This document shows positions 3,225 through 24,367 of a stretch of 64,000 nucleotides of DNA, in pieces. The stretch covers positions 6,490-70,489 of the forward strand of contig DAOTZA010000229.1 of the NCBI GenBank assembly GCA_034434515.1, in the 5' to 3' direction. How positions within the stretch are numbered: position 1 is the first letter of the stretch; the number at the start of each line of letters is the position of its first letter. Both the position numbers and the translations under genes were made by a program. This DNA comes from Anaerolineales bacterium. GTDB lineage: Bacteria; Chloroflexota; Anaerolineae; Anaerolineales; UBA4823. Below the pieces are notes generated by a model that was not told the origin of the DNA, ran no database searches, and saw only the letters and a list, made by a program, of their open reading frames with translations.

Positions 3225-5257
3225 CTCCTGCCGGACGATTTTGGCTGGTTTTAAGGGCGATCCTGTCCCTGGGGGTCACCCCGCTTGCGAACTATACCTG
3301 GTATCAATTTGGGATGCGTAGCGGCTTAACCGAAAGAGTTAGCTATACAGCCCTGCTACGGGCTTTGAAAGGTGCAAAGGGCGTACAATTTCAGCCCGTT
3401 TTTCAATTGCCATCTCCGCAGCTACTGATTTCGGTGATGGGCGATCAAGTTCAAGATTTACTGCAAGAAGCTGAGGACGTCTGTGCGGGAAAAACGCGCC
3501 TTTTTGGTTTTCAATTATTTGATTTGGATTACCGCCAGGGAAAGTCGGAGCTATGGTTCACCAGAGTGGAACGTTCGCTCGTGGATAAAAAAGAAGGCCC
3601 TGTAGATATGAAATTCTTTTGGGAGCCGGCTCGCTTTGGTTGGGTCTATCCCTTAGGACGCGCTTATCGCATTCGTCCCGAAGAGCGGTATGTTGAAAAA
3701 TTTTGGGAAGGTTTTGAATCCTTTTCGGAGCACCATCCTCCCTATTATGGCGTGAACTGGTTGTCTGCTCAAGAAGTCGCTCTGCGCCTGATGGCATTAA
3801 CTTTTGGTTTTCAGGTCTTTCAAAACGCCGCAGCAAGCACAGCAGAACGGAAGCAAAGCCTGCTCGAAGCGCTGGCTGTCCATGCAGCGCGCATTCCCTG
3901 CACCCTTTCTTATGCCGTGGCGCAAAATAATAATCACCTCCTGAGTGAAGCGGTGGGATTGATGACCGCTGGAGCGGTCTTACGGGGACATTCGCTTTCC
4001 GATACATGGTGGAAGACGGGCTGGAAATGGTTTTTGCTCGGCATCTGCCGCCAGATTGCTGAAGATGGAACGTATGTTCAGCACAGTGCAAATTATCACC
4101 GCTTGATGCTCCAGTTAGCCCTTTGGGCGCGTTTGCTAGCCGTAGGTAAGGGGGTAGAATTTCCAAATCCTGTCTCTCACCGCCTAACCGAAGCTGCAAA
4201 GTGGTTGTGGGAATGCTGTGAGGTGAGCAATGGACGCGTCCCGAATTTAGGTCCAAACGATGGGGCAATCATTCAACCGCTAAGTCAAACCCCGTTTCAC
4301 GATTATCGGGCGGTAATTCAGGCTGCCTGGCGGGCTTTTGTCGGTAAAGCAGCCTTTCCACAAGGCGTTTGGGATGAGATGAGCCTCTGGTATGGAGTTT
4401 GGCATCTGCCTATCCCTGCTGACAAAGCGGCTTTTGAAGAAGAGCAAATACCTCCTGAGAAAGAGCCCTTATCGATTCGCCCAAATTCATGGGTGCTCAT
4501 TCGTTCCCAGAAGCAAAAAACGTGGGCAGCTTTCCGTTGTCCCCGCTTTTTTTCTCGCCCTGCTCACGCCGATCTCCTTCACGTTGATTTATGGTGGGAT
4601 GGGGTAAACCTGGCGATGGATGCCGGCACCTACCGATATACGGCTCCGCCGCCATGGGAAAACTCCCTCGCTGAGGCCTTTTACCATAACACGGTAACGG
4701 TTGACGGTCGTAACCCAATGACCAGAGCGGGGAAATTTCTTTGGCTGGATTGGGCTAAGACCAGGATCGAACTCAACCGAAACGACAAGATTAAGTCAGA
4801 TTTGGTGGTAGGGGCAGAACATACGGGCTATCTGGCTCGAGGTGTACGCTACCAACGCTGGGTTACGCTGCAAGAGGATCACCTTTGGATCATTAATGAT
4901 TGCCTTGAGCCAGCACATCCCGAAAAGCAGCCAATTGCCCCGATGGTTCGCCTGCACTGGCTGGTCACTTTGGGTGATTGGCAAGTCACCAAAGAAGCAT
5001 TCGGCTGGGGTATCCTTTTGCGGCTCCATGATCGACAATTGCGGTTATGGTTAAAAGCTCCAGGAACGTCTCATTTGCGCATCGTGAAAGCGGGTAAGGT
5101 GGTTTTTGGAGAAGGTGGGGTGATGCCAGTTTATGGGTATTTCTCACCCTCGTATAATCACCTTGAACCGGCGCTCTCGGTGATCTTAGAGGTGCAGGCA
5201 ACCCTGCCGCTGAATTTAGAAACCGTTTGGGATTTAACTGCTACTGATAAGCTATGA
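3221..5257 (+). CDS. Heparinase II/III-like (alginate lyase family) protein
   Basis: Motifs WEPARF, EVALR, NNHLLSE, QHSANYHRL, HADLLH, DAGTYRY and HNTVTVDG. Confidence 0.85.
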   Translation: MTPAGRFWLVLRAILSLGVTPLANYTWYQFGMRSGLTERVSYTALLRALKGAKGVQFQPVFQLPSPQLLISVMGDQVQDLLQEAEDVCAGKTRLFGFQLFDLDYRQGKSELWFTRVERSLVDKKEGPVDMKFFWEPARFGWVYPLGRAYRIRPEERYVEKFWEGFESFSEHHPPYYGVNWLSAQEVALRLMALTFGFQVFQNAAASTAERKQSLLEALAVHAARIPCTLSYAVAQNNNHLLSEAVGLMTAGAVLRGHSLSDTWWKTGWKWFLLGICRQIAEDGTYVQHSANYHRLMLQLALWARLLAVGKGVEFPNPVSHRLTEAAKWLWECCEVSNGRVPNLGPNDGAIIQPLSQTPFHDYRAVIQAAWRAFVGKAAFPQGVWDEMSLWYGVWHLPIPADKAAFEEEQIPPEKEPLSIRPNSWVLIRSQKQKTWAAFRCPRFFSRPAHADLLHVDLWWDGVNLAMDAGTYRYTAPPPWENSLAEAFYHNTVTVDGRNPMTRAGKFLWLDWAKTRIELNRNDKIKSDLVVGAEHTGYLARGVRYQRWVTLQEDHLWIINDCLEPAHPEKQPIAPMVRLHWLVTLGDWQVTKEAFGWGILLRLHDRQLRLWLKAPGTSHLRIVKAGKVVFGEGGVMPVYGYFSPSYNHLEPALSVILEVQATLPLNLETVWDLTATDKL

Positions 5258-6474
5258 GAATTCTCTTGATTCATCAAGCCTTTGCTGCCCTGGATGAGCC
5301 GGGGGGCACCCGTCATCATGAACTGGCACGCTTTTTTGCCGAACGTGGGCATCAGGTGGTGGTGATCACCAGTCCCATTAATTACATGACCGGCGCGGAG
5401 CATTCGGTAGAAAAAATAGAGCAAATGAAGCTTGGCAAAGGAGAGGTCATCATCCTGCGGGTTCCGGTCTATCGCGCTTTTCATCGTAGCTTTGTACATC
5501 GTACCTTGAGTTTTATCAGCTTTATGCTTTCTTCTCTGTGGTATGCCTTAACCCTCAAGTCGCCCGATGTGGTATGGGGAACTTCTCCCCCGATTTTTCA
5601 GGTGATCACTGCCTGGTTGGTGGCTAAAGTGAAGCAAAAACCCTTGGTATTTGAAGTGCGAGATCTCTGGCCGGCTTTTGCGGTGCAGGTGGGTGTGTTA
5701 CGAAATCGATTCTTGATCGCTGCGTCTGAATGGTTAGAGCAGTTCCTTCTTCGTCAAGCAGACGTGGTCGTGGTCAATTCGCCCGGATTCGTATCCCATG
5801 TTCGCCAGCGGGGTGCAAAACGCATCGAAATTATTCCAAACGGCTCCGATGTGGAGCTGTTTGCTCTCCCCCCAGATGAAAATGACTTTCGGCGAGCGAA
5901 TGGATTAGAAGGCAAGTTTGTCGTTTTGTATGCCGGCGCGCACGGAATGTCCAACGATTTGGATCAGGTCTTGGCGGCGGCGGAAGAGCTACGCACCGTT
6001 GCGGAGATCGTTTTTGTTTTGGTGGGAGATGGCAAGGAAAAACCCAGATTACAGCAAAAGGCAGCCGACTTAAAGTTAACCAATGTCCTGTTTCTGCCGC
6101 CAGTGGCGAAAACAGACATGGCAAAGGTGATTCACGGAGCGGACGTTTGCCTGGCGATCTTAAAACCGATCCCATTGTACGGAACAGTTTATCCCAATAA
6201 AGTATTCGATTACATGGCTGCCGGCAAAGCGGTACTTTTGGCAATTCCTGGTGTCATTCGAGAGGTTATCGAAGAACATCGCGCGGGGATTGCTATTCCT
6301 CCTGGAGATTCGCACGCTTTAGCGGAGGCGGTACTTTTCTTATCTCATAACCTTGAGCTGGTTCTCCAGCTAGGGTGTAATGGGCAAAGAGCGATTGAAG
6401 AACATTATAACCGAAAAAAGCTGGCTGCGGATTTTCTGGCTCTTTTTGAAGAATTAGCTGACCGAACGGATTAA
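5254..6474 (+). CDS. Glycosyltransferase family 4 (WbuB-like)
   Basis: GT-B motifs TSPPIF, EVRDLWP, IPNG, YAGAHG and PNKVFDYMAAGK. Confidence 0.9.
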   Translation: MRILLIHQAFAALDEPGGTRHHELARFFAERGHQVVVITSPINYMTGAEHSVEKIEQMKLGKGEVIILRVPVYRAFHRSFVHRTLSFISFMLSSLWYALTLKSPDVVWGTSPPIFQVITAWLVAKVKQKPLVFEVRDLWPAFAVQVGVLRNRFLIAASEWLEQFLLRQADVVVVNSPGFVSHVRQRGAKRIEIIPNGSDVELFALPPDENDFRRANGLEGKFVVLYAGAHGMSNDLDQVLAAAEELRTVAEIVFVLVGDGKEKPRLQQKAADLKLTNVLFLPPVAKTDMAKVIHGADVCLAILKPIPLYGTVYPNKVFDYMAAGKAVLLAIPGVIREVIEEHRAGIAIPPGDSHALAEAVLFLSHNLELVLQLGCNGQRAIEEHYNRKKLAADFLALFEELADRTD

Positions 6475-8472: not shown

Positions 8473-9263
8473 TGCTTCCCGCAATCGTAACTGCTGGTGG
8501 AATTCCTCAACCGGGTGAACCGCTCTATCCTCTTTCTCAGGGGAGAGAGAAGGCTTTACTTCCGATAGCTGGAAAGCCGATGATCCAGTGGGTATTAGAA
8601 GCAGTGGAAAGTGCTTCGCTCATTGATACGGTGATTGTCGTTGGGGTGGCATTGCCTGAAAACCTTCAGAGTGCAAAGGTGCGGGCAATTCTTCCCAATC
8701 AGGAAGATATGCTGGCGAATATCCTGACCGGGATGAGAAAGCTTCTGGAAATTGAACCCGCAGCTCATCACGTCGTTTTGGTATCCTCGGATATCCCGGC
8801 AATCACCGGTGAGATGGTGGACTGGCTGGTGCAGGTAACCATGCAGACGGATGAAGATGTCTATTATACGGTTATTGAGCGGCGCGTCATGGAAGCAAAA
8901 TATCCACTCTCCAAACGGTCTTACACTCGTTTGAAAGATATCGAGGTTTGTGGCGGCGATATGAACGTTGTGCGGGCGACTCTGGACGCAGAGAACCAAC
9001 AAATGTGGAAAAACATTATTGCTGCCCGAAAGAATGTATTCAAACAGGCGGCGTTAATTGGTTTGGATACATTGTTTTATCTTCTCATTCGTCAGATTAC
9101 CCTAGATCAGGCGGTGCGAACGGTGGCATCGAGAATGAACATCAGTGGGCGAGCTATTGTCTGTCCGTATGCTGAAGTTGGAATGGATATCGATAAACCG
9201 CATCAATTTGACATCGTCGAGGCAGATTTACTTCAACGGCTGAGGAGTAACCTGATAGCATGA
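8472..9263 (+). CDS. Nucleotidyltransferase (MobA/CofC/CobY-like NTP_transf_3 family)
   Basis: AIVTAGG, KALLPIAGKPMIQWV, SSDIP and MDIDKP motifs. TGATG coupling to the upstream gene. Confidence 0.8.
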   Translation: MLPAIVTAGGIPQPGEPLYPLSQGREKALLPIAGKPMIQWVLEAVESASLIDTVIVVGVALPENLQSAKVRAILPNQEDMLANILTGMRKLLEIEPAAHHVVLVSSDIPAITGEMVDWLVQVTMQTDEDVYYTVIERRVMEAKYPLSKRSYTRLKDIEVCGGDMNVVRATLDAENQQMWKNIIAARKNVFKQAALIGLDTLFYLLIRQITLDQAVRTVASRMNISGRAIVCPYAEVGMDIDKPHQFDIVEADLLQRLRSNLIA

Positions 9264-9766
9264 AACGGTGGATGGAGTGGGATGCACGCTTCAGTGAAAA
9301 AATGCGCATAGATGATAGTCGCAGTTGGGTGAAAAGGGGGGCAGCGATCTTCGCCCATTCAGGGGATTCGTGGTTCTGGCTATTGGGCTTAATCCTGGTC
9401 GGGTTCTTCTTCCCTTCCCTGAGGCAACTTGCGTTTCTCTATGCTGGGGCGATCTTGTTTCTGGCTATCTTGGTGTTGGGAATCAAATTCTCGGTCAGAC
9501 GTCAAAGGCCGCAGGGTGAGTGGGGTGCAATCTATCGACGCACAGACCCCCATTCATTCCCCTCCGGCCATGCAGCTCGGGCGACCCTCTTGGCGGTTTT
9601 GGGAGTTGGAGTGGGGCCCCCGCTGTGGGGGCTTGCGTTAACCATTTGGGCGCCTTTGGTTAGCCTTTCCCGGGTAGCTTTGGGACTTCATTACCTGTCA
9701 GATATTTTGGCAGGGGCGCTGTTAGGAGCGTTGGTTGGGATCTTGAGCTTATGGTGGCTAGGCTAA
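9260..9766 (+). CDS. PAP2 family membrane phosphatase
   Basis: K...RRQRP, SFPSGHA and SRVALGLHYLSD catalytic motifs with hydrophobic helices. ATGA overlap. Confidence 0.88.
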   Translation: MKRWMEWDARFSEKMRIDDSRSWVKRGAAIFAHSGDSWFWLLGLILVGFFFPSLRQLAFLYAGAILFLAILVLGIKFSVRRQRPQGEWGAIYRRTDPHSFPSGHAARATLLAVLGVGVGPPLWGLALTIWAPLVSLSRVALGLHYLSDILAGALLGALVGILSLWWLG

Positions 9767-10836
9767 TCTGGCGAGAAGGGGATTTTTGCCAGTTCGCGTT
9801 TGAAATTTTCGAGCATTTCAATTGGAGTCGGATCGACACCATAAGCGATTGCCAGATAATAGGCGATATAATCACCGAGTAACAAACTGGTCCATAATTG
9901 GGCAAGGGGAGTGTCTCCTTCGGCGTCAATAAAATCGGTGCCTAACCCCTGCAGCATAAACTCTCGTTTGGTCATTTCTAATCGTTGTTGATGGCGGGGG
10001 TGTAGAAAGCGAGAACGTAAAAACAGAGCCACGATTTGGCTTAACAGCGTTTCGGGGTTTTGGGTGCCGGTCAAGAGGTTATGGTTTGCTTCGGGGATCT
10101 CCTCCGATTGCGCCCAGGCTTTGGCAAGCTCGTTGATCTGCGTTTTCCAACGGCGCGCTACAGGAGCAAGAAATCCAGCCCCAAAGACTGAGACCCATCT
10201 ACCAATCAACTGACCTGCCATCCTTTTGGCGGGGTTTTGCACCGTAGGTATTTGGGGGTCGAGTTTCTTCTGCAAAATTGACATGGCCTGGATAGCACTA
10301 TCCAGCTCGAAAGTTGGATCGGCGATGGCTTTTAAGCGATACAACAGTGCCAGGATCAGGGTGAAGGAATATCCAACTGCCGCTCTCGGTTGTCCCCGAT
10401 AATCATATTTCCAAAGTGGGAAATTAAATTTGAGAGCCAGGTCTTCCAGTTTCCCACCGGTTGAGATTCCTAACAATGTACAGCCACGTTTATGGGCAAT
10501 CTCAAGGGCAATTAGGACCTCTTCGGTATTGCCGGAATGGGATGAACCCACTACCAGAAAAGAAGGACCACTTACCCAGGCTGGAATTTCGTAATCCCGA
10601 ACGAGAGTATAAGGAATTGAGAGCTGGTTATTGATATAGTTTTGAACTAAGTCAGCTCCAATCGCCGATCCACCTACACCAACAACAATGATTTGCTTTA
10701 GGGAGTTTGATTTAGGCGCTTCCTGATTCAGCCCTAACTTCCACCCGTTATCTAACTGGTCAGCAAGATGTTGCAAATGCCAGAGCATATTTTGTTGGTC
10801 ATAACGTGTGTAGATAGATGGATCATCAAAAATCAT
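9763..10836 (-). CDS. Bifunctional phosphoglucose/phosphomannose isomerase (SIS family, PGI/PMI)
   Basis: GVGGSAIG, SHSGNTEE, QPRAA, RWKTQINE and EIPEANHN motifs. Confidence 0.88.
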   Translation of the reverse strand: MIFDDPSIYTRYDQQNMLWHLQHLADQLDNGWKLGLNQEAPKSNSLKQIIVVGVGGSAIGADLVQNYINNQLSIPYTLVRDYEIPAWVSGPSFLVVGSSHSGNTEEVLIALEIAHKRGCTLLGISTGGKLEDLALKFNFPLWKYDYRGQPRAAVGYSFTLILALLYRLKAIADPTFELDSAIQAMSILQKKLDPQIPTVQNPAKRMAGQLIGRWVSVFGAGFLAPVARRWKTQINELAKAWAQSEEIPEANHNLLTGTQNPETLLSQIVALFLRSRFLHPRHQQRLEMTKREFMLQGLGTDFIDAEGDTPLAQLWTSLLLGDYIAYYLAIAYGVDPTPIEMLENFKRELAKIPFSPD

Positions 10837-13976: not shown

Positions 13977-14513
13977 TTGGTTAATTGGAGTTATCGCCTT
14001 TGGCAATTTTGGAAAACCATCTGGGCGAAGCCAACGTTGAGCGACCGAGAGCTTGTGGAGCAATTTCTGGCACCGCCGCTCGTGCAACTCTTTGAGCGTC
14101 TTGACCCCTCTGAGCAAGCTCATGCGGTACGGGTTTGTCGAAAGCTAATCGCTGAAGGAGAAACGAACCCGCTTTTCCTCACTGCAGCTCTGCTTCATGA
14201 CATTGGGAAAATTTGCTATCCTTTACGATTGTGGGAACGAGTCTGGATTGTACTCTTTGGTGGGATGGTCAAGAAAATGGCAAAACCGTTGATCCTGAGC
14301 GACGAACAGTTAGAGAGGGCTGCGTGGTGGAAACGACCCTTGCTGGTGGGGAAATTCCATCCGTCTTGGGGGGCAGAGATATTGCGTTCTAATGGGGTTG
14401 ATGAGCGGATTGTATGGCTGGTGCAATACCATCAGGATGCCAATGGAATTGATCCAAAGCATCCTCAGGCAAGCTGGTTGCAAAAATTGGGGCGAGCAGA
14501 TGAGCTATGTTAA
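13977..14513 (+). CDS. HD-domain metal-dependent phosphohydrolase
   Basis: H...LLHDIGK...HPSWGAEIL...YH...D. The TTG start directly follows the upstream TAG, so the start is uncertain. Confidence 0.75.
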   Translation: MVNWSYRLWQFWKTIWAKPTLSDRELVEQFLAPPLVQLFERLDPSEQAHAVRVCRKLIAEGETNPLFLTAALLHDIGKICYPLRLWERVWIVLFGGMVKKMAKPLILSDEQLERAAWWKRPLLVGKFHPSWGAEILRSNGVDERIVWLVQYHQDANGIDPKHPQASWLQKLGRADELC

Positions 14514-14523
14514 GGAGATACCG

Positions 14524-15516
14524 ATGAGAATAACCATTCTCGGATTGGGGAAAACGGGCAGTTCCCTAGGATTAGCGCTGAGAAGGAAATCAGAAGACCT
14601 CCAGCGAATCGGACATGATCGGGACATTGGTGTGGCAAAAGAGGCGCAGAAAGTGGGAGCGATTGATACTGTAGCTATCAACCTTCATCAGGCCGTGCAA
14701 GATGCTGATGTCGTTTTCTTGGCTATTCCCTTTGATCAGGTTCATGAAACGCTTCAGCAAATTGCCCAAGACCTGAAAGAAGGCGCTGTTTTGATCGATC
14801 TCAGCCCTGCCAAGCAAAAAATCGCCGAATGGACGAGAGAATTGCTTCCTGCAAGAAGATATTATGTGGGCTGGAACATAGCGATTAACCCCGCCTACTT
14901 GCAAGATACCCGCAAAGGGGTAAATGCTTCACGGCAAGATTACTTTCAGCAGGGGGTTGTGGCAGTCACAGCTCCATCGGGCACACCATCTGGGGTTTTC
15001 GAATTGATCACGGCCTTGATCAAAAGTATTGGAGCTGAGCCGCTCTTTGCCGATGCCCTGGAGATGGATGGCGTGCTTGCCGAAGCACAAGTTATTCCGC
15101 AATTGCTTTCGGCGCTGATGGTCTATACGCTCACCCAGCAACCTGGTTGGCGAGAAGCTCGCAAGTTTGCTGCGCAGGATTTTCTTGAGATGGGAATGCC
15201 TTTAGTAAACTCTGTCTCTGCTGAAGAATTATCCCAAACCCTCTTTGCCAATCGGGAACTGATCAAGCGGTTGATCAACGAACTGCTTATTGCATTGGTA
15301 GAGTGGCGAGAGTATCTGCTCAATGACGAGATTGGGGCATTAACCCAGAGCCTCTCGGAAGCCCAACAACGCTTTGAAAAATGGCAAACCGAACGCACGG
15401 CAGCAAACTGGATACTGGAGGAGACCGGTATTCGCAGCGAAGATTTGCCAACCTCAGGAGAGGTCTTTGGGCGATTACTGGGGGTTGGGAACCGGAACAA
15501 GAAACAAAAGAAATGA
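14524..15516 (+). CDS. Prephenate/arogenate dehydrogenase (TyrA)-family protein with a degenerate active site
   Basis: Rossmann [10 protein letters not shown] and DVVFLAIP are present, but the HPM motif reads WNI. SD AAGGAG precedes ATG 14524. Confidence 0.72.
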
Positions 15517-15545
15517 CGGATAGAGAATTGATAAGGAGGTCTGAA

Positions 15546-16727
15546 ATGACATCACCTTTAGCCTGGATTCAAGATGAGATCGAGACTCTTAAAACTTCGG
15601 GGTTGTATAATCGCATCCGCACGCTAAGCTCGCCACAGGGAGCCTGGTTGTTGGTGGATGGCAAAAAAGTGTTGAATTTTTGTTCAAATAATTATTTGGG
15701 GCTGGCGAACCATCCGAAAGTTATTCAGGCAGCAAGGGAGGCAATGGACAAATATGGGGTTGGTCCTGCAGCCGTGCGCACAATTGCTGGCACAATGGAT
15801 TTGCACGTTGAACTGGAAAGACGTCTGGCAGCCTTCAAAGGGGTTGAATCGGCCATTACTTTTCAGTCCGGATTCAACGCCAATTTAGCCACCATACCTG
15901 CTTTGGTGGGGAAAGAAGATGTCATATTTTCCGATGAACTCAATCACGCCAGCATCATCGATGGTTGCCGCCTCTCCGGAGCAAAAATTATCCGCTATAA
16001 CCACTGCGATCCGCAGGATTTAGAAAAGGCACTGTTCGAAGAACGCCGCGATCACCCCCGTGCCCTGGTGGTCACCGATGGGGTCTTTAGCATGGATGGG
16101 GATATCGCTCCGCTGGATCAAATCTATGAGGTGGCAAAGAAACACGAGGCCATCCTCATGGTGGATGATGCTCACGGGGAGGGCGTGCTTGGAAGAGGTG
16201 GACGGGGCATCGTTGATCATTACCAGTTGCACGGAAAGGTAGATGTCGAGATCGGGACACTTTCCAAAGCCTTTGGTGTGATTGGAGGGGTTGTTGCAGG
16301 CAATAGCTTGATCGTCGAGTGGTTGCGGCAGCGTGGCCGGCCATTTTTGTTCTCCTCTGCGATGACGGTTCCCGACACTGCTGCCTGTTTAGCCAGCCTT
16401 GAAATTCTGGAAAGCTCAACCGAGTTAGTCGATCGACTCTGGGAAAATACGCGTTACTTCAAGGAAGAGATGCGCAAAGCTGGCTTTGATTTGGGGAAAA
16501 GCGTTACCCCAATTACACCAGTCATGCTCGGCGAAGCGCCCTTAGCCCAGGAGTTCAGTAAAGCTCTATTTGATGAAGGCGTATTTGCGATGGCGATCGG
16601 ATTCCCTACGGTACCCCGCGGCAAAGCGCGCATTCGGGTCATGATATCTGCTGCTCACCAAAAAGAAGATTTGGAACGCGGCCTGGAAATTTTTACCAAA
16701 GTTGGAAAGAAACTAAAGGTAATTTAA
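15546..16727 (+). CDS. kbl: Glycine C-acetyltransferase / 8-amino-7-oxononanoate synthase family
   Basis: [36 protein letters not shown] and GTLSKAFG (PLP Lys). SD AGGAGG precedes ATG 15546. Confidence 0.88.
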
Positions 16728-16960
16728 CCGCGGTCAGCAAACGGGTCCACCAAAGGATTGGTTCCAGACCAAACGCAGCCCGCGTGAGCGTCATAATTAC
16801 AAATTGTGCCATGCGAACAGCGATGGGCAAGGACGCGTGGCGGGGTATCCGGCAACCATTCAGCAGGATAGACCACTTCGGCTTCAAAATAAACGTCACA
16901 ACCAGCTTGATTGCAAAATCGAGTTTTGTAGATTTCCCAAACTTTCGTTGCCATCATCAC
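16724..16960 (-). CDS. Small Cys/His-rich hypothetical protein
   Basis: Strong SD (AAGGAGA) before GTG/ATG. Pattern C-x4-C...HRC-x5-C...C. Its stop overlaps the kbl stop by 4 bp. Confidence 0.65.
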
Positions 16961-16980
16961 TCTCCTTGCATGTTGATTAT

Positions 16981-16997
16981 GGTCTATAGTATAGACC
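16981..16997. promoter_or_regulatory. Perfect palindrome, candidate operator
   Basis: GGTCTATA-G-TATAGACC lies 20 nt upstream of the small minus-strand gene. Confidence 0.45.
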
Positions 16998-17130
16998 TGT
17001 GTTCCTGGGATGCAAAGTGTCAGGTGTCATGAATAAACTTGATAAATTTCGTCTATTTGGGATAATAACTATCGGGCGGATTTGTTTGGAAATGCAAGAG
17101 CTTTTGAAGACGGGATTTATTGATGAATTT

Positions 17131-17160
17131 TTGGCAGCGCTCGGGAATCTCGATTATAAT
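17131..17160 (+). promoter_or_regulatory. Sigma70-type promoter of the peptide ABC operon
   Basis: TTGGCA-18 nt-TATAAT, predicting a leader of about 210 nt. Confidence 0.55.
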
Positions 17161-17177
17161 ATTGGACACGCAAAGAG

Positions 17178-17256
17178 ATCATGGGCAGGGTGCTTTTTTC
17201 ACAATCCTTCAAGCGAGATGCCATACCCTAACTGTTTATCTGCGTTTGCCCATGAT
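17178..17256 (+). ncRNA. Candidate cis-regulatory leader RNA with partial TPP-riboswitch-like features
   Basis: 10-bp outer stem ATCATGGGCA/TGCCCATGAT encloses GGGTG/TACCC, GCTT/AAGC and a GAGA junction. The P4/P5 arm is missing. Confidence 0.3.
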
Positions 17257-17378
17257 GCCCGTTATGGATCGCGAATCTATTTACTAAACAGGAGGTGGTC
17301 GAAGAAAAAAAGTTTCTCAATATCCCAAATCAATTTCCCAAAAATTTCGTAAAATCTATTTATTCAGGAGGAGAAAGT

Positions 17379-19157
17379 ATGACTCGAAAAATGCTAACCG
17401 TCATTGGAACGGGGTTGTTGTTGGTGAGCTTCATTTTAGGAGCTTGTGCCCAACCGACTCCCGCTCCTGCGCCAGAGCAACCTGCTGCCACTGAAGCCCC
17501 AGCAAAAACGGAAGCTCCAGCAGCAACCGAAGCCCCGGCTGCAACGGAAGCTCCGGTCGAAGAAACACCGCCGCCCAAGGTACCCATTGCGATTTACGAT
17601 GGGAAAAGCCTTTCCGTACCGGATTGTGAGTATGGCGGCCTTATCAAATCTATTGAAGCCACCGATGATCACACGGTAACCTTCACGCTGTGTAAACCTG
17701 ACCCGGCTTTTGAAGTCAAATTGGGTTTCGGTGTCTTCTCAATTTACCCCAAGGAATGGATTGAAGCCACAGCCGGAGAGAGCACCCGCGCCAGCGAGGG
17801 TTTGGAAAGACCGGTTGGGACAGGCCCCTACAAAATCCAGGAATGGAAACGTGGCGATAGCGTTGTGCTGGTCAAGAACCCAGATTACTGGGATCAAGAA
17901 TTGATTAAGAATGCGCCTGACACGTTAATATTCCGCTGGTCAACCGAGTCGGCCGCTCGTTTGCTGGAATTGCAAGCTGGCACCATTGATGGCTTTGATA
18001 ACGTCGGGCCTGAAGATTTTGAGGTGGTGACGAACGATCCCAATCTTCAACTGGTCGTTCGCCCGGCTTTGAATATCTTTTATATCGGCATGACCAACAC
18101 CTATCCTCCCTTTGACAACGTCAAGGTGCGCCAGGCGGTTGCCATGGGCATCGACCGCCAACGAATTGTGGACACCTTCTATCCTCCAGGTTCTGAAGTG
18201 GCTTCGCACTTCACTCCTTGCGCCATCCCGAATGGTTGCACGGGTGAACCGTGGTACGACTTCGACCCCGAAGCCGCCAGAGCTTTATTGGCTGAGGCGG
18301 GATATCCGGATGGCTTCCAGACCAAACTCTATTACCGCGATGTCGTGCGCGGTTATCTGCCCCAGGTTGCCAATGTCGCCCAGGATATCCAGGCGCAGTT
18401 GAAGGAAAACCTGAACATCGATGCGGAAATTGTGGTCATGGAATCCGGCGCCTTCCTCGAGGCTTCAGCTTCTGGACAGCTCAATGGGTTCCATCTCTTA
18501 GGCTGGACCGGTGACTATCCACACATTACCAACTTCCTTGACTACCACTTTGGTAAGGAAACTCAGCAATTTGGCAAGATTCCGCCCGAAATTTACGAGC
18601 CTCTGATTGAAGGTGGAAAAATTGCCGATGTCGATCAGGCCGCGCCAGTCTATGAGCGGGCAAACAACGCCATCCGTGAATTTGTCCCCATGGTGCCGGT
18701 AGCCCATGGTGCTTCTGCTACAGCCTATCGAGCAGATGTGACTAACCCACAAGCCAGTCCCCTGGGGAACGAGCGCTTTGTTTTCTCCAAAGGTGGCGAC
18801 CGCGATACCTTCGTGTTCATGCAGAATGCTGAGCCAATCAGCCTGTTCTGCGCTGATGAAACCGATGGTGAATCGCTCCGACCATGCGAGCAAATCACCG
18901 AAGCCCTCTTTGCGTTCAAAATCAATACGACCGAGCTTGAACCAGGACTGGCAGAGAGCTGTGAGCCCAATGCAGACTTGACTCAGTGGGTTTGCAAGCT
19001 GCGCCAGGGCGTCAAGTTCCACGATGGCAGTGACTTCACCGCCGAAGATGTGGTGGCAACCTTCAATATGGGCTTGAACCCGGGTTCGCCAACGCACGTC
19101 GGCAACACCAATCTGTGGGATTATTACGACTATCTGTGGGGCTTGATGTGGAAGTAA
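17379..19157 (+). CDS. Family-5 peptide ABC substrate-binding lipoprotein, circularly permuted DppA-like
   Basis: Lipobox LGAC and AATEAP linker. Core motifs VGTGPY, VRQAVAMGIDR, YDFDPEAARALL and GWTGD. The canonical N-terminal motif (PGLAES...LRQGVKFHDG...TAEDV) lies at the C-terminus. Confidence 0.92.
   Translation: MTRKMLTVIGTGLLLVSFILGACAQPTPAPAPEQPAATEAPAKTEAPAATEAPAATEAPVEETPPPKVPIAIYDGKSLSVPDCEYGGLIKSIEATDDHTVTFTLCKPDPAFEVKLGFGVFSIYPKEWIEATAGESTRASEGLERPVGTGPYKIQEWKRGDSVVLVKNPDYWDQELIKNAPDTLIFRWSTESAARLLELQAGTIDGFDNVGPEDFEVVTNDPNLQLVVRPALNIFYIGMTNTYPPFDNVKVRQAVAMGIDRQRIVDTFYPPGSEVASHFTPCAIPNGCTGEPWYDFDPEAARALLAEAGYPDGFQTKLYYRDVVRGYLPQVANVAQDIQAQLKENLNIDAEIVVMESGAFLEASASGQLNGFHLLGWTGDYPHITNFLDYHFGKETQQFGKIPPEIYEPLIEGGKIADVDQAAPVYERANNAIREFVPMVPVAHGASATAYRADVTNPQASPLGNERFVFSKGGDRDTFVFMQNAEPISLFCADETDGESLRPCEQITEALFAFKINTTELEPGLAESCEPNADLTQWVCKLRQGVKFHDGSDFTAEDVVATFNMGLNPGSPTHVGNTNLWDYYDYLWGLMWK
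17481..17555 (+). repeat. Degenerate 18-bp tandem repeat encoding a (P-A-A/K-T-E-A)x4 flexible linker
   Basis: PAATEA PAKTEA PAATEA PAATEA follows the lipobox. Confidence 0.8.
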
Positions 19158-19176
19158 TCTAACCACGCGAAGCAAT

Positions 19177-19203
19177 ACGGGATGGCGAGCCTCGCCATCC
19201 CGT
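19177..19203. terminator. GC-rich hairpin after the SBP gene (mRNA stabiliser or attenuator)
   Basis: ACGGGATGGCGA-GCC-TCGCCATCCCGT is a perfect 12-bp stem with no U-tract, at the usual position in ABC importer operons. Confidence 0.65.
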
Positions 19204-19222
19204 CCGCTATTGACAAAGAACT

Positions 19223-20305
19223 ATGTTAATTCAATATATCGTCCGCCGCTTCCTATCTGCTATCCCGGTACTTTTTGGAATTCTTCTAGTAACCTTTACG
19301 CTTGCTAGAGTGATCCCCGGTGATCCTTGTCGGGCAATTTTAGGAGAGAAAGCGACTCAAGAAGTCTGCGATCGCTTTATCCGCGAGAAAGGGTTAGATA
19401 AACCCATCCCGGTTCAATTTTGGGTTTATCTAAATGAAATCGCACGGGGAGATTTTGGTCAGTCCTTCCGCTATGGAATGCCGGTAACACGCTTGTTAAT
19501 TGAACGGTTGCCGACCACGGTCGAGTTGAGTCTGACTGCCCTGTTGATTAGCATGGTGGTTGGAATTCCCCTCGGAATCATCTCGGCGGTCAAACACAAT
19601 TCATGGATCGATGTTTTTACAATGATTTGGGCGAATATCGGCGTATCTATGCCGGTCTTCTGGCTAGGGCTGATGTTGATGTATGTCTTTTCCCTAGCTC
19701 TGAAAGACACTCCCTTTTGGTTGCCTCCCTCCGGACGGTTAAGCGCAGGGATGTCAGCCGATCCGTTCTATGTGGTCTGGGGATGGTCTTTGCCGGAAAG
19801 CGGCCTTCGCATTGCCGTTGCCCAATTTATCAGTCGCTTGAACATTCTCAACGCTCTGTTAACGGCGAATTGGGCATTGTTGAAGGACGCCATTACCCAT
19901 CTGATCCTGCCCTCGGTGGCGCTGGGTACAATTCCCATGGCATTGATTGCCCGCATTACTCGCTCCAGTATGCTCGAAGTGCTTGGTCAGGATTATGTCC
20001 GCACCGCGCGCGCCAAAGGGTTGCCCTATGGGAAAATTATCCTCAAGCATGCCTTTCGGAATTCCCTCTTGCCGCTCGTGACCGTCATTGGGCTATCGTT
20101 GGGCAGCTTATTGGGAGGCGCGGTGTTGACCGAAACGATCTTCGGGCTTTCTGGGGTTGGGCGAACTTTATATGATGCTATCACCGCCAGAGATTATGGA
20201 ATTGTCCAGGCTTTTACTGTGGTTATTGCAATTTTCTTTGTCATCTTGAACTTGATTGTGGATATCTCGTATGCCTATTTAGATCCGCGCATTCGCCTCG
20301 ACTAG
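19223..20305 (+). CDS. dppB: Peptide ABC transporter permease (DppB-like)
   Basis: GDFGQS, RLPTTVEL, SMPVFW and EAA loop DYVRTARAKGL. Confidence 0.9.
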   Translation: MLIQYIVRRFLSAIPVLFGILLVTFTLARVIPGDPCRAILGEKATQEVCDRFIREKGLDKPIPVQFWVYLNEIARGDFGQSFRYGMPVTRLLIERLPTTVELSLTALLISMVVGIPLGIISAVKHNSWIDVFTMIWANIGVSMPVFWLGLMLMYVFSLALKDTPFWLPPSGRLSAGMSADPFYVVWGWSLPESGLRIAVAQFISRLNILNALLTANWALLKDAITHLILPSVALGTIPMALIARITRSSMLEVLGQDYVRTARAKGLPYGKIILKHAFRNSLLPLVTVIGLSLGSLLGGAVLTETIFGLSGVGRTLYDAITARDYGIVQAFTVVIAIFFVILNLIVDISYAYLDPRIRLD

Positions 20306-20306
20306 G

Positions 20307-21275
20307 ATGGTTGGCATGAGTGACCAGGATATTTCCTCAAAAAAAGTGGCTTCATTCGATGCAGAGGGCTTATCCCTGAAATCGGTGAGTTTGTGGCAGA
20401 TCACCTGGCGAAGGTTTTTTCGCCGCAAATCTGCCCTAGTGGGATTGGGGATACTGGCGGTTCTGGTATTTATTGCCCTGACCGCCCAATGGATTGCCCC
20501 CTATGATCCTTATAAACCATTGATTGGGATCGAGAAAGTACAACGGCGTGAAAAACCCTGCATTCATCTCCTGGGATGTCCCAAGGACAAACCCCAGCAC
20601 ATAATGGGAATCGATGGCAATGTGCGCGATCAATTTAGCCGTCTGCTTTTTGGCGCGCGCTTGAGTTTGATCATTGGTGTTTCGACGGTTAGTTTCGCAA
20701 TCGTTATCGGTACGATTTTCGGAGCAGTGGGAGGATATTTTGGGGGATGGATCGATAATGTGATTATGAGAGTAATGGATGTGCTGCTTGCTTTCCCCTC
20801 CTTGCTCCTGGCGATCACTATTGTAACGGTTTTAGGGCCTGGATTGATCAATGCCCTAATTGCGATTAGCATTGTATCCATTCCAGCTTATGCGCGCGTG
20901 GTGCGCGCCAGCGTTCTCTCGGTTCGAGAGATGGACTATGTGTCTGCTTCACGGGCATTAGGCGGTTCAGACAGTCATATTATCTTTAAGAGAATACTGC
21001 CGAATGCGCTAACACCGCTGATTGTCCAGGGGACGTTAGGAATAGCCACGGCGATTTTGGAGGCTGCTGCGCTCTCCTTCTTGGGATTGGGAGCTCAACC
21101 ACCCACTCCGGAGTGGGGCTCGATGCTTGGGGCAGAACGAAATCAGGTTTTCACTGCGCCACATCTGGTCTTTTATCCAGGGTTTGCCATCATGTTGACG
21201 GTTTTATCCTTTAATCTCTTGGGGGATGGGTTAAGAGATGCGCTCGATCCAAGATTAGCTCATGTGAGTGGGTGA
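20307..21275 (+). CDS. dppC: Peptide ABC transporter permease (DppC-like)
   Basis: HIMGIDGNVRDQFSRLLFGARLSL, DYVSASRALG and LSFLGLGAQPPTPEWG. The start could be 20316. Confidence 0.9.
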   Translation: MVGMSDQDISSKKVASFDAEGLSLKSVSLWQITWRRFFRRKSALVGLGILAVLVFIALTAQWIAPYDPYKPLIGIEKVQRREKPCIHLLGCPKDKPQHIMGIDGNVRDQFSRLLFGARLSLIIGVSTVSFAIVIGTIFGAVGGYFGGWIDNVIMRVMDVLLAFPSLLLAITIVTVLGPGLINALIAISIVSIPAYARVVRASVLSVREMDYVSASRALGGSDSHIIFKRILPNALTPLIVQGTLGIATAILEAAALSFLGLGAQPPTPEWGSMLGAERNQVFTAPHLVFYPGFAIMLTVLSFNLLGDGLRDALDPRLAHVSG

Positions 21276-22290
21276 AGTTAAGCATGGGAGTTGTACTGTG
21301 CCAGAAAATTCAAAGCCACTGCTAGAAATTAAGGATTTGTCGACATTTTTCTATACCGAGGATGGTATTGTTCGGGCTGTGGATGGGGTTGATTTAGTGG
21401 TTTACCCGGGAGAGGTTTTGGGGTTGGTGGGTGAATCGGGGTGTGGAAAAAGTGTCACCTCATTATCGATTATGCGCCTTATTGCTCCGCCTGGTAAGAT
21501 CGTCAAGGGGGAAATCTGGTTTGAAGGAGAGAATTTAGCTGAAGTTCCTGAAAGTCGCATGATGAAAATCCGCGGCGATCGTATTTCGATGATCTTCCAA
21601 CAACCTCAGACCAGCCTCAATCCGGTCTTTACCACCGGTAGCCAGGTTGGTGAAGTCTTTACTATTCATGAAAAGTTAAAAGAAAAAGAAGCCTGGCAAA
21701 GGGCGGTAGAACTGTTCCGTCTGGTGGGCATCCCTGATCCAGAACGACGGGCAAAATCCTATCCCCACGAGATGTCGGGCGGAATGGCGCAACGAGTGAT
21801 GATTGCCATGGCTTTGGCGCTTCGTCCGGCCTTGTTGATTGCAGATGAACCAACCACGGCACTGGATGTCACCATTCAGGCGCAAATCCTCGACTTGATG
21901 CGGGAGTTGCGCTCGAAGTTTGGCGCTTCGGTCATCTTGATCACCCATGATTTAGGGGTTATCGCAGAAATGGCTGAACGGGTGGCGGTGATGTACGCCG
22001 GCCAGATTGTGGAGGAAGCGGATGTCATCACCTTGTTCGATCGTCCGCGGCATCCCTACACGGTTGGGTTGATGAACTCTATCCCGATTTTAGGGCGGTA
22101 TCGCGAGCAGTTGGAAGTAATCCCCGGCTCTGTGCCAAATCTCATCGATTTGCCACCGGGTTGCCGTTTTGCACCGCGATGCAGGGCAAGAGTGGAAAAC
22201 CGTTTGGAAATTTGCGAGTTTCAAAATCCAGACTTGATTGAGGTCGACAAAGGGCATACCGTTCGCTGTTGGCTGTATCAAGCGCATTGA
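21268..22290 (+). CDS. dppD: Peptide ABC transporter ATP-binding protein (DppD-like)
   Basis: [29 protein letters not shown] and a C-terminal Cys-rich oligo_HPY region. Confidence 0.92.
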
Positions 22291-22297
22291 TTTCGGT

Positions 22298-22326
22298 TTG
22301 ACAATCTTTGAGCTGGGGGCTAAAAT
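22298..22326 (+). promoter_or_regulatory. Sigma70-type promoter for coaE-cdaA-cdaR-der
   Basis: TTGACA-17 nt-TAAAAT. Confidence 0.7.
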
Positions 22327-22352
22327 GGATAGCAACGAGATATAAGATTGCG

Positions 22353-23477
22353 ATGAGTGCCTGGCCTGGAAAAACAGTCATTGGGTTAACCGGTAATATT
22401 GCCACCGGGAAAAGCGTGGTGCGCAAGATGCTCGAACATTTGGGGGCTTATGGCATTGATGCGGATGCGCTGAGTCATCGCGCCATTGCCATAGGTGCAC
22501 CGGGGTATCAGATGGTCGTGGATACATTTGGAAAATGGATTCTTGCCCCGGATGGACAGATTGATCGCAGTAAGCTGGCGAAAATCGTTTTCTCCGATGC
22601 GGCGGCGTTGAAAAAACTCGAAAACATCATCCATCCCCTGGTGCGTCAAGCAGAGGATTTGCTCATTCGTCGCACGACTAAAACGGTGATTGTCGTTGAG
22701 GCGATTAAGTTAATTGAATCGGGGTTTGACCGCTTTTGTGATCAGGTCTGGGTAACGTATGCTCCCGAAGATGTTCAGTTGCGCCGCTTGATGATGAAAC
22801 GTGGCTTGAGCCGTGAAGCTGCTCTGCAGCGAATCCTCGCTCAACCCCCTCAGGAAGAAAAAATCAAACGCGCCGATGTCGTCATCCACAACGATAAATC
22901 TTTTGAAGATACCTGGCAGCAAGTTGTCAATGCCTGGAAAAGCCTGTTTCCAGAGAAAGAAATTGAAGGCAAACGAGCGTCCCAAGCCGGGATGATGGTT
23001 GAGCGAGCCAAGCCCAGTCAGGCAAGTGAGATTGCGGATTTGCTGCGAGCGGTTTCAAAAGGGAAAAGACTTTTATCTTCGCAAGAAGTGATGGAAGCTT
23101 TTGGTGAGAAGGCCTACTTGCTCCTCCGCAGAGATGGCATAGCGGAAGGAATATTGGGTTGGAGGGTCGAAAACCTTGTGGCGCGGGTGGATGATTTTTA
23201 CGTCTCTGATCGAGCGCCTTTCGCCGAGGCAGCAACTTTGCTCATACAGGAAGTGGAGAGGGCATCGAGAGAATTACAATGTGAAGCAGCACTTTTATTT
23301 TTGAGTGATGAGCTAAAAGCACACCAGGAAGTCTGGCAGAAAATGGGATATCAGGAGACAACTGCCCAGAATATCGGTATCCGCGCCTGGCAGGAAGCAG
23401 CTTTGGAATTCAAGCAACCAGGGCATACGCTTTGGATCAAGCGTTTGCGGGAAGATCTGGTGTTGAAACCGGTGTAA
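22353..23477 (+). CDS. coaE: Dephospho-CoA kinase with C-terminal GNAT-like domain
   Basis: IGLTGNIATGKS, DADAL, IIHPLVR, EAIKLIE and QPPQEEK, followed by about 165 aa of alpha/beta GNAT-like sequence. Confidence 0.88.
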   Translation: MSAWPGKTVIGLTGNIATGKSVVRKMLEHLGAYGIDADALSHRAIAIGAPGYQMVVDTFGKWILAPDGQIDRSKLAKIVFSDAAALKKLENIIHPLVRQAEDLLIRRTTKTVIVVEAIKLIESGFDRFCDQVWVTYAPEDVQLRRLMMKRGLSREAALQRILAQPPQEEKIKRADVVIHNDKSFEDTWQQVVNAWKSLFPEKEIEGKRASQAGMMVERAKPSQASEIADLLRAVSKGKRLLSSQEVMEAFGEKAYLLLRRDGIAEGILGWRVENLVARVDDFYVSDRAPFAEAATLLIQEVERASRELQCEAALLFLSDELKAHQEVWQKMGYQETTAQNIGIRAWQEAALEFKQPGHTLWIKRLREDLVLKPV

Positions 23478-23482
23478 GACTC

Positions 23483-24367
23483 GTGAATGATTTATTCGCA
23501 AACTTTATCGATAGTATCCTTTTTGTTTTGCAACGGATTACGTGGCTGAGCGTAATCGATCTCTTGTTGGTTACGGCGATCTTTTTCATTGTTCTGAAAT
23601 TAATCCAGGACACACAAGGGATTATCCTGATTCGCGGGGCGATTTTTTTAATCGTTATTGTAGCCATGTTGTCCACTTTAGAGGTGTTGCCGGCGTTCTC
23701 ATGGATGGTGCGCAATACCTTGCCGGCTTTATTGATCGCCATACCGGTTATCTTTGCCCCGGAAATTCGGCGCACACTTGAAAGGTTGGGGAGGGCGGGA
23801 ACATTAATTTCAAGCAGTCAAATGAGTTCAGGTACTCCTCAGGTGATCAAGTCCGTGGTTCGAGCTTGCGCGCGTTTATCAGAGCGCAAGCATGGAGCGT
23901 TAATTGTCTTTCAACGTTTCGATCGCCTGGATGAGTATATTAATAGCGGAGTTCAACTCAATGCCAAAGTAAGCCCTGAGTTGTTGCTGCAAATCTTTTA
24001 TCCCAATACGCCCTTGCATGATGGTGCGGTGATTATCAGCAATGAGACTATCCTAGCGGCGGCTTGTGTCTTACCGCTTTCTTCAAGCGGCGTGCTGACC
24101 GAATCGCCTGAGCGCCAAATGGGATTGCGCCATCGCGCTGGACTTGGTATTAGTGAGGTCTCCGATGCGATTGCGATTGTGGTCTCCGAGGAAACTGGAT
24201 CGATCTCTATTGTGGATAACGGGCGCATGATTCGGCGCATTGATCCAAATCGACTTGAGTTGATTCTCAAAGCGCTGCTTCACTTCCCCTCTGATGATAA
24301 GGGATTGAGTATCCTAATGAAAAAAATCCTTGGTTTTGTTCAATCCAAAGGAGAAACTCATCAATGA
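23483..24367 (+). CDS. cdaA: Diadenylate cyclase CdaA/DacA
   Basis: Three N-terminal TM helices, FAPEIRRTLE, LHDGA (DGA) and GLRHRA (RHR). GTG start is inferred. Confidence 0.93.
   Translation: MNDLFANFIDSILFVLQRITWLSVIDLLLVTAIFFIVLKLIQDTQGIILIRGAIFLIVIVAMLSTLEVLPAFSWMVRNTLPALLIAIPVIFAPEIRRTLERLGRAGTLISSSQMSSGTPQVIKSVVRACARLSERKHGALIVFQRFDRLDEYINSGVQLNAKVSPELLLQIFYPNTPLHDGAVIISNETILAAACVLPLSSSGVLTESPERQMGLRHRAGLGISEVSDAIAIVVSEETGSISIVDNGRMIRRIDPNRLELILKALLHFPSDDKGLSILMKKILGFVQSKGETHQ

Follow-up and report, generated by a model that had tools for sequence, protein, structure and literature searches.

How did a substrate-binding protein (SBP) of family 5 (cluster C) come to carry all the elements of its fold in the wrong order? 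The question is raised by a gene in a 64,000-nt stretch of contig DAOTZA010000229.1 from an Anaerolineales bacterium; we refer to the whole stretch as the window. The open reading frame (ORF) at positions 17379–19157 is intact, runs from an ATG at 17379 to a stop codon at 19155–19157, and encodes 592 residues. An earlier inspection of the DNA without database searches (the sequence-only reading) had proposed that the product is a circularly permuted DppA-like protein with the canonical N-terminal part at its C-terminus. Significant non-colinear matches to canonical proteins, colinear homologues, an AlphaFold2 (AF2) model, and the covariation of cysteine pairs bear this out. We consider it very likely that the protein is an inherited circular permutant of the family-5 fold and functions as the receptor of a Dpp/Opp-type ATP-binding cassette (ABC) importer.

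The canonical N-to-C order of the family-5 fold elements is not found in the ORF 17379–19157 protein. When it was compared with the sequences of solved structures in the Protein Data Bank (PDB) using phmmer, every strong match was split into two stretches that were out of order. Residues 84–467 align to residues 121–502 of HbpA/GbpA (PDB: 3m8u) with an independent E-value (i-E) of 6e-48, and residues 477–583 align to residues 4–117 of the same protein with an i-E of 6e-8. The split alignment to Escherichia coli DppA (PDB: 1dpp) places residues 88–467 on DppA residues 123–501, and residues 508–585 on residues 34–117 (i-E 4e-7); no colinear alignment to a canonical protein exists. SBP_bac_5 (PF00496) is the sole Pfam family found in the protein and matches it in two stretches, with a score of 287 bits against a cut-off of 32.4 (E 2.6e-85). 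The best stretch links residues 87–395 to profile positions 63–365. The NCBIfam model of DppA is matched by residues 86–467 from model position 149 on. The two matching pieces cover the canonical fold exactly once, as the sequence-only reading had stated; the statement does not extend to residues 68–83, which form an additional N-terminal extension.

DppA can be divided into three segments, S3 (residues ~1–118), S1 (residues 121–344), and S2 (residue 345 to the end), so that the canonical order is S3-S1-S2. The order in the ORF 17379–19157 protein is S1-S2-S3, which we call T1. All features of the gene and of its operon are located on the plus strand. S1 is formed by residues 84–313 (positions 17628–18317), which are equivalent to DppA ~121–344 in phmmer alignments to 3m8u, 5f1q, and 1dpp and in Foldseek; it spans the latter half of domain II, the centre of domain I, and the beginning of domain III. 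S2 is formed by residues 314–467 (positions 18318–18779), equivalent to DppA ~345–501 in the 1dpp alignment. It supplies what remains of domain III and the C-terminal portion of domain I, and carries Arg324 and Asp379. S3 is formed by residues 477–592 and the stop codon (positions 18807–19157), is equivalent to DppA ~1–118 (phmmer i-E 6e-8 to 4e-7), and contributes the initial strand of domain I together with the first half of domain II. The predicted local distance difference test (pLDDT) values of S3 in the AF2 model are 81–98.

The ancestral termini are joined by residues 468–476, VFSK-GGDRD (positions 18780–18806, pLDDT 80–93). The order switches at codons 476–477 (nt 18804–18807), where codon 476 encodes the last linker residue before Thr477 of TFVFMQ; the switch point at nt 18804 given in the sequence-only reading is this codon. 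Canonical relatives end in TVSL, ITFK, or VSIE, and start with TFVF. VFSK (residues 468–471) corresponds to the last residues of DppA and, because it still matches the canonical C-terminal residues, the added linker is GGDRD only. The short linker proposed before, GGDR, is correct in kind and is extended by one residue. The new termini are located in a surface loop of domain II, and the lipobox and tether are attached, as had been claimed, at an internal point of the canonical chain. By sequence reading, the N-terminus contains an export signal of the Sec/lipobox type, MTRKMLTVIGTGLLLVSFILGAC, and residues 1–23 (positions 17379–17447) form a predicted lipoprotein signal peptide with the lipobox L-G-A-C. 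The lipobox Cys23 is invariant in 57 close homologues, and a lipobox-like motif is present in 195 of 258 T1 proteins. The following 44 residues, 24–67 (positions 17448–17579), form a flexible tether rich in Pro, Ala, Glu, and Thr with TEAPA repeats; residues 1–62 have pLDDT values below 50. Near-repeats of (A)TEAPA(A/K) make up the tether, and the DNA that encodes them is repetitive; homologues differ greatly in tether length, which ranges from 0 to more than 100 residues. The structured N-terminal extension, VPIAIYDGKSLSVPDC (residues 68–83, positions 17580–17627), has no canonical counterpart and ends in Cys83. The extension, of roughly 16–20 residues, forms short strands with pLDDT values of 72–97.

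The T1 order is shared by a large family. The 120 best matches from a search of 5.8 billion proteins are all colinear with the query (65–91% identity, ~570–600 residues); they originate mostly from metagenome-assembled genomes (MAGs) of Anaerolineales and other Chloroflexota, and come from four independent data sources. A fragment spanning the junction (residues 401–592) has colinear matches in 71 species-representative genomes from at least seven phylum- or class-level groups, the set including Anaerolineae, Chloroflexia, Thermomicrobiales, Acidimicrobiia, Phycisphaerae, Acidobacteria, Chthoniobacterales, Alphaproteobacteria, and Gammaproteobacteria. There are multi-Mb contigs among these genomes, and in Alphaproteobacteria the matches come from, among others, the cultured Pseudooceanicola endophyticus and one MAG each of Pelagibacteraceae and Kiloniellales. 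In an exhaustive search of 1.84 billion representatives clustered at 50% identity, most of the top 150 matches are single colinear alignments across the junction, down to 30% identity, and ~95 full-length representatives have the T1 order. Canonical proteins appear in this search only from an E-value of ~1e-71, in two stretches, the main one of which ends at the junction. When the search was repeated with the query split into segments, 223 of the first 270 proteins were permuted, 15 canonical, and 32 fragmentary. More than 250 proteins from NCBI, JGI, ENA, and Logan assemblies have the T1 order and the same junction, and the gap between the old termini is 7–10 residues long in 255 of 258 T1 proteins. 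The permuted order is present in several phyla and in independent assemblies. A T1 domain also occurs at the C-terminal end of much longer metagenomic proteins, with a Ser/Thr protein kinase (P0148), TIR (P0122), Peripla_BP_6 (P0123), or double zinc ribbon (P0130) as the N-terminal partner, which suggests that the T1 domain serves as an extracellular sensor module.

The AF2 model of the ORF 17379–19157 protein, built on an alignment of 57 sequences, has a predicted template modelling score (pTM) of 0.81 and pLDDT values of about 90 for residues 63–592, whereas residues 1–62 are disordered. The protein is predicted to form one compact globule, in which the C-terminal segment is included and not set apart as a domain of its own. 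The best PDB matches of the model identified by Foldseek are liganded GbpA, Yersinia DppA, and E. coli DppA, and all top matches belong to cluster C. The best alignment has ~400 columns, a root-mean-square deviation of 2.5 Å, and a TM-score of 0.70–0.71 normalised to the target. A TM-score of 0.70 should be about the ceiling for a sequential aligner, which sees only S1 and S2, a colinear block of 380 residues. Based on homology, the local AF2 confidence, and the pTM of the whole chain, residues 477–592 probably occupy the position of DppA residues 1–118. We found no solved structure with the permuted order; the PDB sequence matches are canonical and aligned in two stretches, and all Foldseek matches are canonical.

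The protein contains eight cysteines after the lipobox, which the sequence-only reading had suggested could pair. All eight are invariant in the 57 close homologues, and among more diverse members they come and go in pairs, which provides strong indirect evidence for four disulfides, 83–105, 281–287, 491–503, and 528–539. In 109 diverse sequences of T1 and of its derivative T2 (see below), both cysteines of the pair 281/287 are present in 48 sequences and neither in 61, and both cysteines of the pair 528/539 are present in 41 and neither in 68, with no sequence containing one cysteine of either pair. For the pair 491/503, the corresponding numbers are 90 with both, two with one, and 17 with neither. 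The pair 83/105 is present in 309 sequences, absent from 10, and incomplete in six, three of which are truncated sequences. It is nearly universal in the permuted clade; in canonical relatives, position 105 is occupied by Ser, Lys, or Arg. The disulfide between Cys83 and Cys105 would tie the N-terminal extension to the first hairpin.

The permuted order is not the only one besides the canonical. The search of the representatives also identified P0129, a protein with the order S2-S3-S1, which we call T2. This order is shared by 65 proteins on many contigs, the longest of which is 594 kb. The closest relatives of T2 outside the group are T1 proteins; P0129 is 85% identical to the T1 protein P0329 over S2-S3, and 72% over S1. 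A neighbour-joining tree of the un-permuted sequences, with its root on canonical proteins, recovers T2 as a monophyletic group deep within T1. The internal junction of T2, GTFEYFGAFFGSFLNA followed by ~20 residues and CEYGGEFKSIEAVD, corresponds in sequence to the C-terminal tail of the T1 sister followed by the N-terminal beginning of the same protein, and the ends of T2 map to a loop of the T1 sister, between AGYTDA and NPLEITLSYR. The T2 gene of one locus (L072) and the T1 sister gene of another (L073) have the same surroundings, consisting of genes for an ATPase of 344 residues, an ATPase of 331 residues, the SBP, a permease of 358 residues, and a permease of 274 or 308 residues. Because T2 and its T1 sister group share this operon layout, the permutation needs no new transporter. 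The AF2 model of a T2 protein has a pTM of 0.77, and its best Foldseek matches are again of the DppA type.

A separate family with the order S2-S3-S1, T2' (type member P0246), contains 54 proteins, and its nearest relatives are canonical. P0246 is 90% identical to the canonical P0435 over S2, and 85% over S3-S1. The junction of the old termini in P0246 is YFEGVTVEGSD joined to TFVFGRGG, which reads as a canonical C-terminal end (YFEGVVITE, followed by the stop) connected to the end of a canonical tether (EGSS) and to a mature N-terminus. The cut site of both T2 and T2' is located in the same surface loop of domain III. Many canonical Anaerolineae relatives of T2' (P0442, P0445, P0456, P0463, P0488, and others) have a second, unrelated binding-protein domain at the N-terminus, which is SBP_bac_3, Bmp, or Peripla_BP_4; these fusions are two-receptor lipoproteins of 750–900 residues.

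All three rotations, S3-S1-S2, S1-S2-S3, and S2-S3-S1, occur in nature, each as a large family that looks functional. They require at least three permutation events, of which the conversion of canonical to T1 is ancient and spread over several phyla, whereas those of T1 to T2 and of canonical to T2' are recent. The two recent events may have taken place within Anaerolineae. The end states, together with one example of a fused tandem, indicate that duplication, fusion, and truncation are the most likely route, in which tandem gene copies would have been fused in frame and the outer parts subsequently lost. The example is P0160, an in-frame tandem SBP5-SBP5 fusion of canonical copies with 1202 residues, in which the C-terminus of copy 1 runs straight into the mature N-terminus of copy 2 with no signal peptide between them. 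P0160 is the type of intermediate required by the model, although it lies outside the permuted lineages. Tandem pairs of T1 genes receive weak support as raw material for permutation: two T1 genes are close together at one of the 74 fetched loci. At this locus (L064, from a Chloroflexia MAG), T1-type genes at 5049–6432 and 9008–10519 are located on the same strand, ~2.5 kb apart. Another protein, P0263 (3461 residues), contains several out-of-order SBP_bac_5 pieces and Big_6 domains. Taken over the three rotations, the three or more events, and the probably undescribed class that we name 'cluster Cc', we lean towards the view that the family-5 fold may be a natural hot spot of permutation.

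The ORF 17379–19157 gene is the first gene of an importer operon (17379–22290), and is followed by genes of a DppB/OppB-type permease (19223–20305; Pfam BPD_transp_1_N and BPD_transp_1), a DppC/OppC-type permease (20307–21275; OppC_N and BPD_transp_1), and a DppD/OppD-type ATPase with an oligo_HPY C-terminal region (21268–22290; ABC_tran and oligo_HPY). Synteny of the operon extends to two further genomes of Anaerolineae (L001 and L003), with protein identities of 88–95%. Arg324 and Asp379 of the receptor correspond in the 1dpp alignment to DppA Arg355 and Asp408, which hold the carboxylate and the alpha-amino group of a bound dipeptide, respectively (PMC8566422; also PMC3295651). Both residues are invariant in the 57 close homologues, and in the 109 diverse T1 and T2 sequences the Arg is present in 81 and the Asp in 87; both are also present in canonical outgroups. 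Because of the conserved anchors and the downstream permeases and ATPase, the most likely function of the protein is that of the receptor of a di- or oligopeptide-type importer, with the usual Venus-flytrap closure and docking, and the balance of sequence evidence tips slightly towards a peptide-like ligand. The lipid-modified N-terminal cysteine and the tether of ~45 residues would hold the protein outside the cytoplasmic membrane of the monoderm Anaerolineae cell. The lobes would close on a small, peptide-like zwitterion, held by Asp379 at the alpha-amino group and by Arg324 at the carboxylate, and the closed protein would then dock on the permeases.

A misassembly, a chimeric contig, or a frameshift near 18800, a possibility that the sequence-only reading had itself raised, could have fused the 3' and 5' parts of two SBP genes and would give precisely such a non-colinear match, the pattern being all that speaks for it. 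However, the order and the junction recur in the more than 250 proteins of independent assemblies and in the 71 species-representative genomes, a cultured isolate and multi-Mb contigs among them, the length of the junction is confined to 7–10 residues, every part of the fold is present once and only once between a signal peptide and a stop codon, and the operon is syntenic in L001 and L003. Because the junction is conserved across independent assemblies and the operon is syntenic elsewhere, misassembly and frameshift were rejected, and we assign practically no probability to an artefact. The protein could also be a genuine gene product and still not a true permutant, if it were an N-terminally truncated SBP that acquired a partial duplicate at its C-terminus as an independent domain, with the canonical N-terminal position empty or otherwise filled. 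That Foldseek aligns only ~400 columns to canonical structures would agree with such an arrangement. Nevertheless, ~400 columns are expected either way, as a sequential aligner is blind to the permuted segment. The pTM of the whole chain reaches 0.81 despite 62 disordered residues, which implies a confident position of S3 with respect to the remaining chain. Moreover, if S3 were independent, that chain would lack half of domain II as well as the first strand of the domain I sheet. Conservation of S3 equals that of the core, many columns in residues 475–592 being invariant, and in T2 and T2' S3 is directly followed by S1, as in canonical proteins. A C-terminal extra domain is very improbable, and the protein is best described as a circular permutant.

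A different question is whether the permutation was selected because it moved the N-terminus and the lipid tether to domain II, and thereby altered the approach to the permeases or the range of ligands. The tether of the ORF 17379–19157 protein is indeed attached at domain II and not at the strand of domain I, a similar tethering argument has been made for the permuted TpMglB-2 (PMC4990184), T1 has a family-specific disulfide at its new N-terminus, and in some proteins kinase, TIR, and other modules precede the T1 domain. However, proteobacterial T1 proteins start with an ordinary signal peptide that is cleaved, lack both lipobox and tether, and retain all four cysteine pairs and the Arg and Asp anchors. 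The T1 and T2 sister groups are found in the same operon layout, with permeases of equal or similar size (358 residues, and 274 versus 308 residues), and the ligand-anchoring residues are conserved. A disordered tether of ~45 residues also makes the attachment point geometrically forgiving. We consider an adaptive origin unlikely, and the suggestion of the sequence-only reading that docking on DppBC or ligand range is altered is not supported, given the untethered proteobacterial T1 proteins, the operon layout common to T1 and T2, and the conserved Arg and Asp. The permutation looks functionally tolerated rather than demonstrably adaptive.

Several observations weigh against the inherited permutant of a peptide-type receptor, or against parts of its history. 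The canonical placement of S3 rests on homology and on AF2 confidence. The nesting of T2 in T1 comes from a single neighbour-joining tree without bootstrap support, and no intermediates were found on the actual permutant lineages. The score of the protein against NF043070, the equivalog model of DppA, is 192 bits compared to a cut-off of 1005 and, because it is so far below, the protein is classified from its sequence as DppA-like and not as a DppA orthologue. The Arg or Asp is missing in about one quarter of the diverse T1 sequences, so the ligand range appears to vary across the family. The operon contains one ATPase gene, whereas two are the rule in Dpp/Opp systems; the rest of the window contains no further Opp-type ATPase, the sole other match being an ABC ATPase with 26% identity at 50933–51643.

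The known structures closest to the ORF 17379–19157 protein, DppA (1DPP and 1DPE), GbpA/HbpA (3M8U and 3TPA), and Yersinia DppA (5F1Q), are homologous to it over the whole fold, with 26–30% identity. They share with it the secondary-structure elements, the ligand anchors, and operon partners of the OppB/C-type permease and oligo_HPY ATPase families. The ORF 17379–19157 protein differs from them in the location of the equivalent of DppA 1–118 at the C-terminus and the fusion of the ancestral termini by GGDRD, and furthermore in the N-terminal extension of ~16 residues, the four family-specific cysteine pairs, and the lipoprotein tether; the operon differs in having one ATPase gene only.

The founding member of a proposed class of permuted binding proteins, 'Type Ic / Cluster Bc', is TpMglB-2 (Tp0684) of Treponema pallidum (PMC4990184). 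TpMglB-2 is likewise a natural permutant of an ABC binding protein with canonical N-terminal strands at the C-terminus, its topology is common to a family of homologues, and many members of the family are tethered lipoproteins. Ligand binding is retained in TpMglB-2; in the ORF 17379–19157 protein it is predicted from sequence. However, TpMglB-2 is a sugar-binding protein of cluster B with two domains, and its permutation was an unrelated event. The sequence similarity of its permuted part is poor and the origin of that part was left open, whereas the permuted part of the ORF 17379–19157 protein is clearly homologous to its canonical counterpart. Three rotations, and pairs of proteins that are 85–90% identical and differ in topology, are found here. 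T1 has the properties by which Cluster Bc is recognised, namely canonical N-terminal elements at the C-terminus, a colinear remainder, and a family-wide order. Since the parent cluster is C, T1 would be an analogous 'Cluster Cc' class and not a member of Bc.

Textbook natural permutants explained by duplication and truncation include DNA methyltransferases, saposin/swaposin, and concanavalin A (reviewed in PMC3320104). The family-5 permutants resemble these in the proposed sequence of tandem duplication, in-frame fusion, and loss of outer segments, and in the existence of a fused-tandem form (P0160). They differ in that the permuted protein is a large three-domain hinge-bending receptor, that there are at least two cut sites, and that one permutant was permuted again. 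We found no description of natural permutation in family 5 or cluster C in the full-text literature, the coverage of which leaves out most subscription journals; apart from engineered sensors and the TpMglB-2 paper, searches for permuted binding proteins gave only unrelated work. It is probable, rather than certain, that a permuted cluster C class is new to the literature.

The start of the gene is preceded by a strong Shine-Dalgarno sequence, AGGAGGAG (17366–17373), identified by sequence reading and located 5 nt before the ATG at 17379. A longer frame starting with GTG at 17295 is not needed, as the consensus of homologues begins at the Met encoded at 17379, in agreement with the N-terminus MTRKML. 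The ~640 bp upstream of the gene (16728–17365) contain nothing but short, apparently non-coding ORFs; the Rfam scan gave no family match anywhere in the window, this region included. Further upstream, a prephenate-dehydrogenase-like ORF (14392–15516) and an ORF of a class I/II aminotransferase (15381–16727) overlap by ~135 nt, and the true start of the aminotransferase is probably further downstream, near 15513. Downstream of the operon, coaE directly follows the single OppD-type ATPase gene (both within 21268–23477), a layout that is kept in L001 and L003. Related operons at loci L072, L073, L075, L053, and L060 have two ATPase genes. The dpp-like operon is followed by coaE and then by a gene of diadenylate cyclase (DAC) both in the window (22308–24367) and in L075 (15413–17430), a distant Anaerolineae contig, in which the SBP is T2' and ybbR is next after the DAC gene. 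The same chromosomal position is occupied in the window and in L075 by SBPs of different topology, which are 33–36% identical.

Natural permutation has usually been deduced by comparing distantly related proteins, and for large proteins of several domains a recent event is difficult to document. In the present family, a hinge-bending receptor of 500 residues has been permuted at two surface loops, and sisters of differing topology are 85–90% identical with matching operon layouts. Permuted proteins in their thousands carry no label more specific than 'ABC transporter substrate-binding protein', and the profiles applied in this analysis hit them in two stretches that are not colinear. Recognising the permuted classes would improve domain models and the structure-based classification of binding proteins. 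Binding proteins are common scaffolds of biosensors, and two permissive cut sites of cluster C, together with a linker of ~5 residues, have been marked by nature. T1, T2, and T2' constitute a natural test of how permutants originate and of the weight of topology in folding, hinge motion, and docking. If the family-5 fold is a permutation hot spot, its members would preserve an unusually clean natural record of duplication, fusion, and truncation, including a permutant of a permutant with the surrounding layout of transporter genes unchanged.

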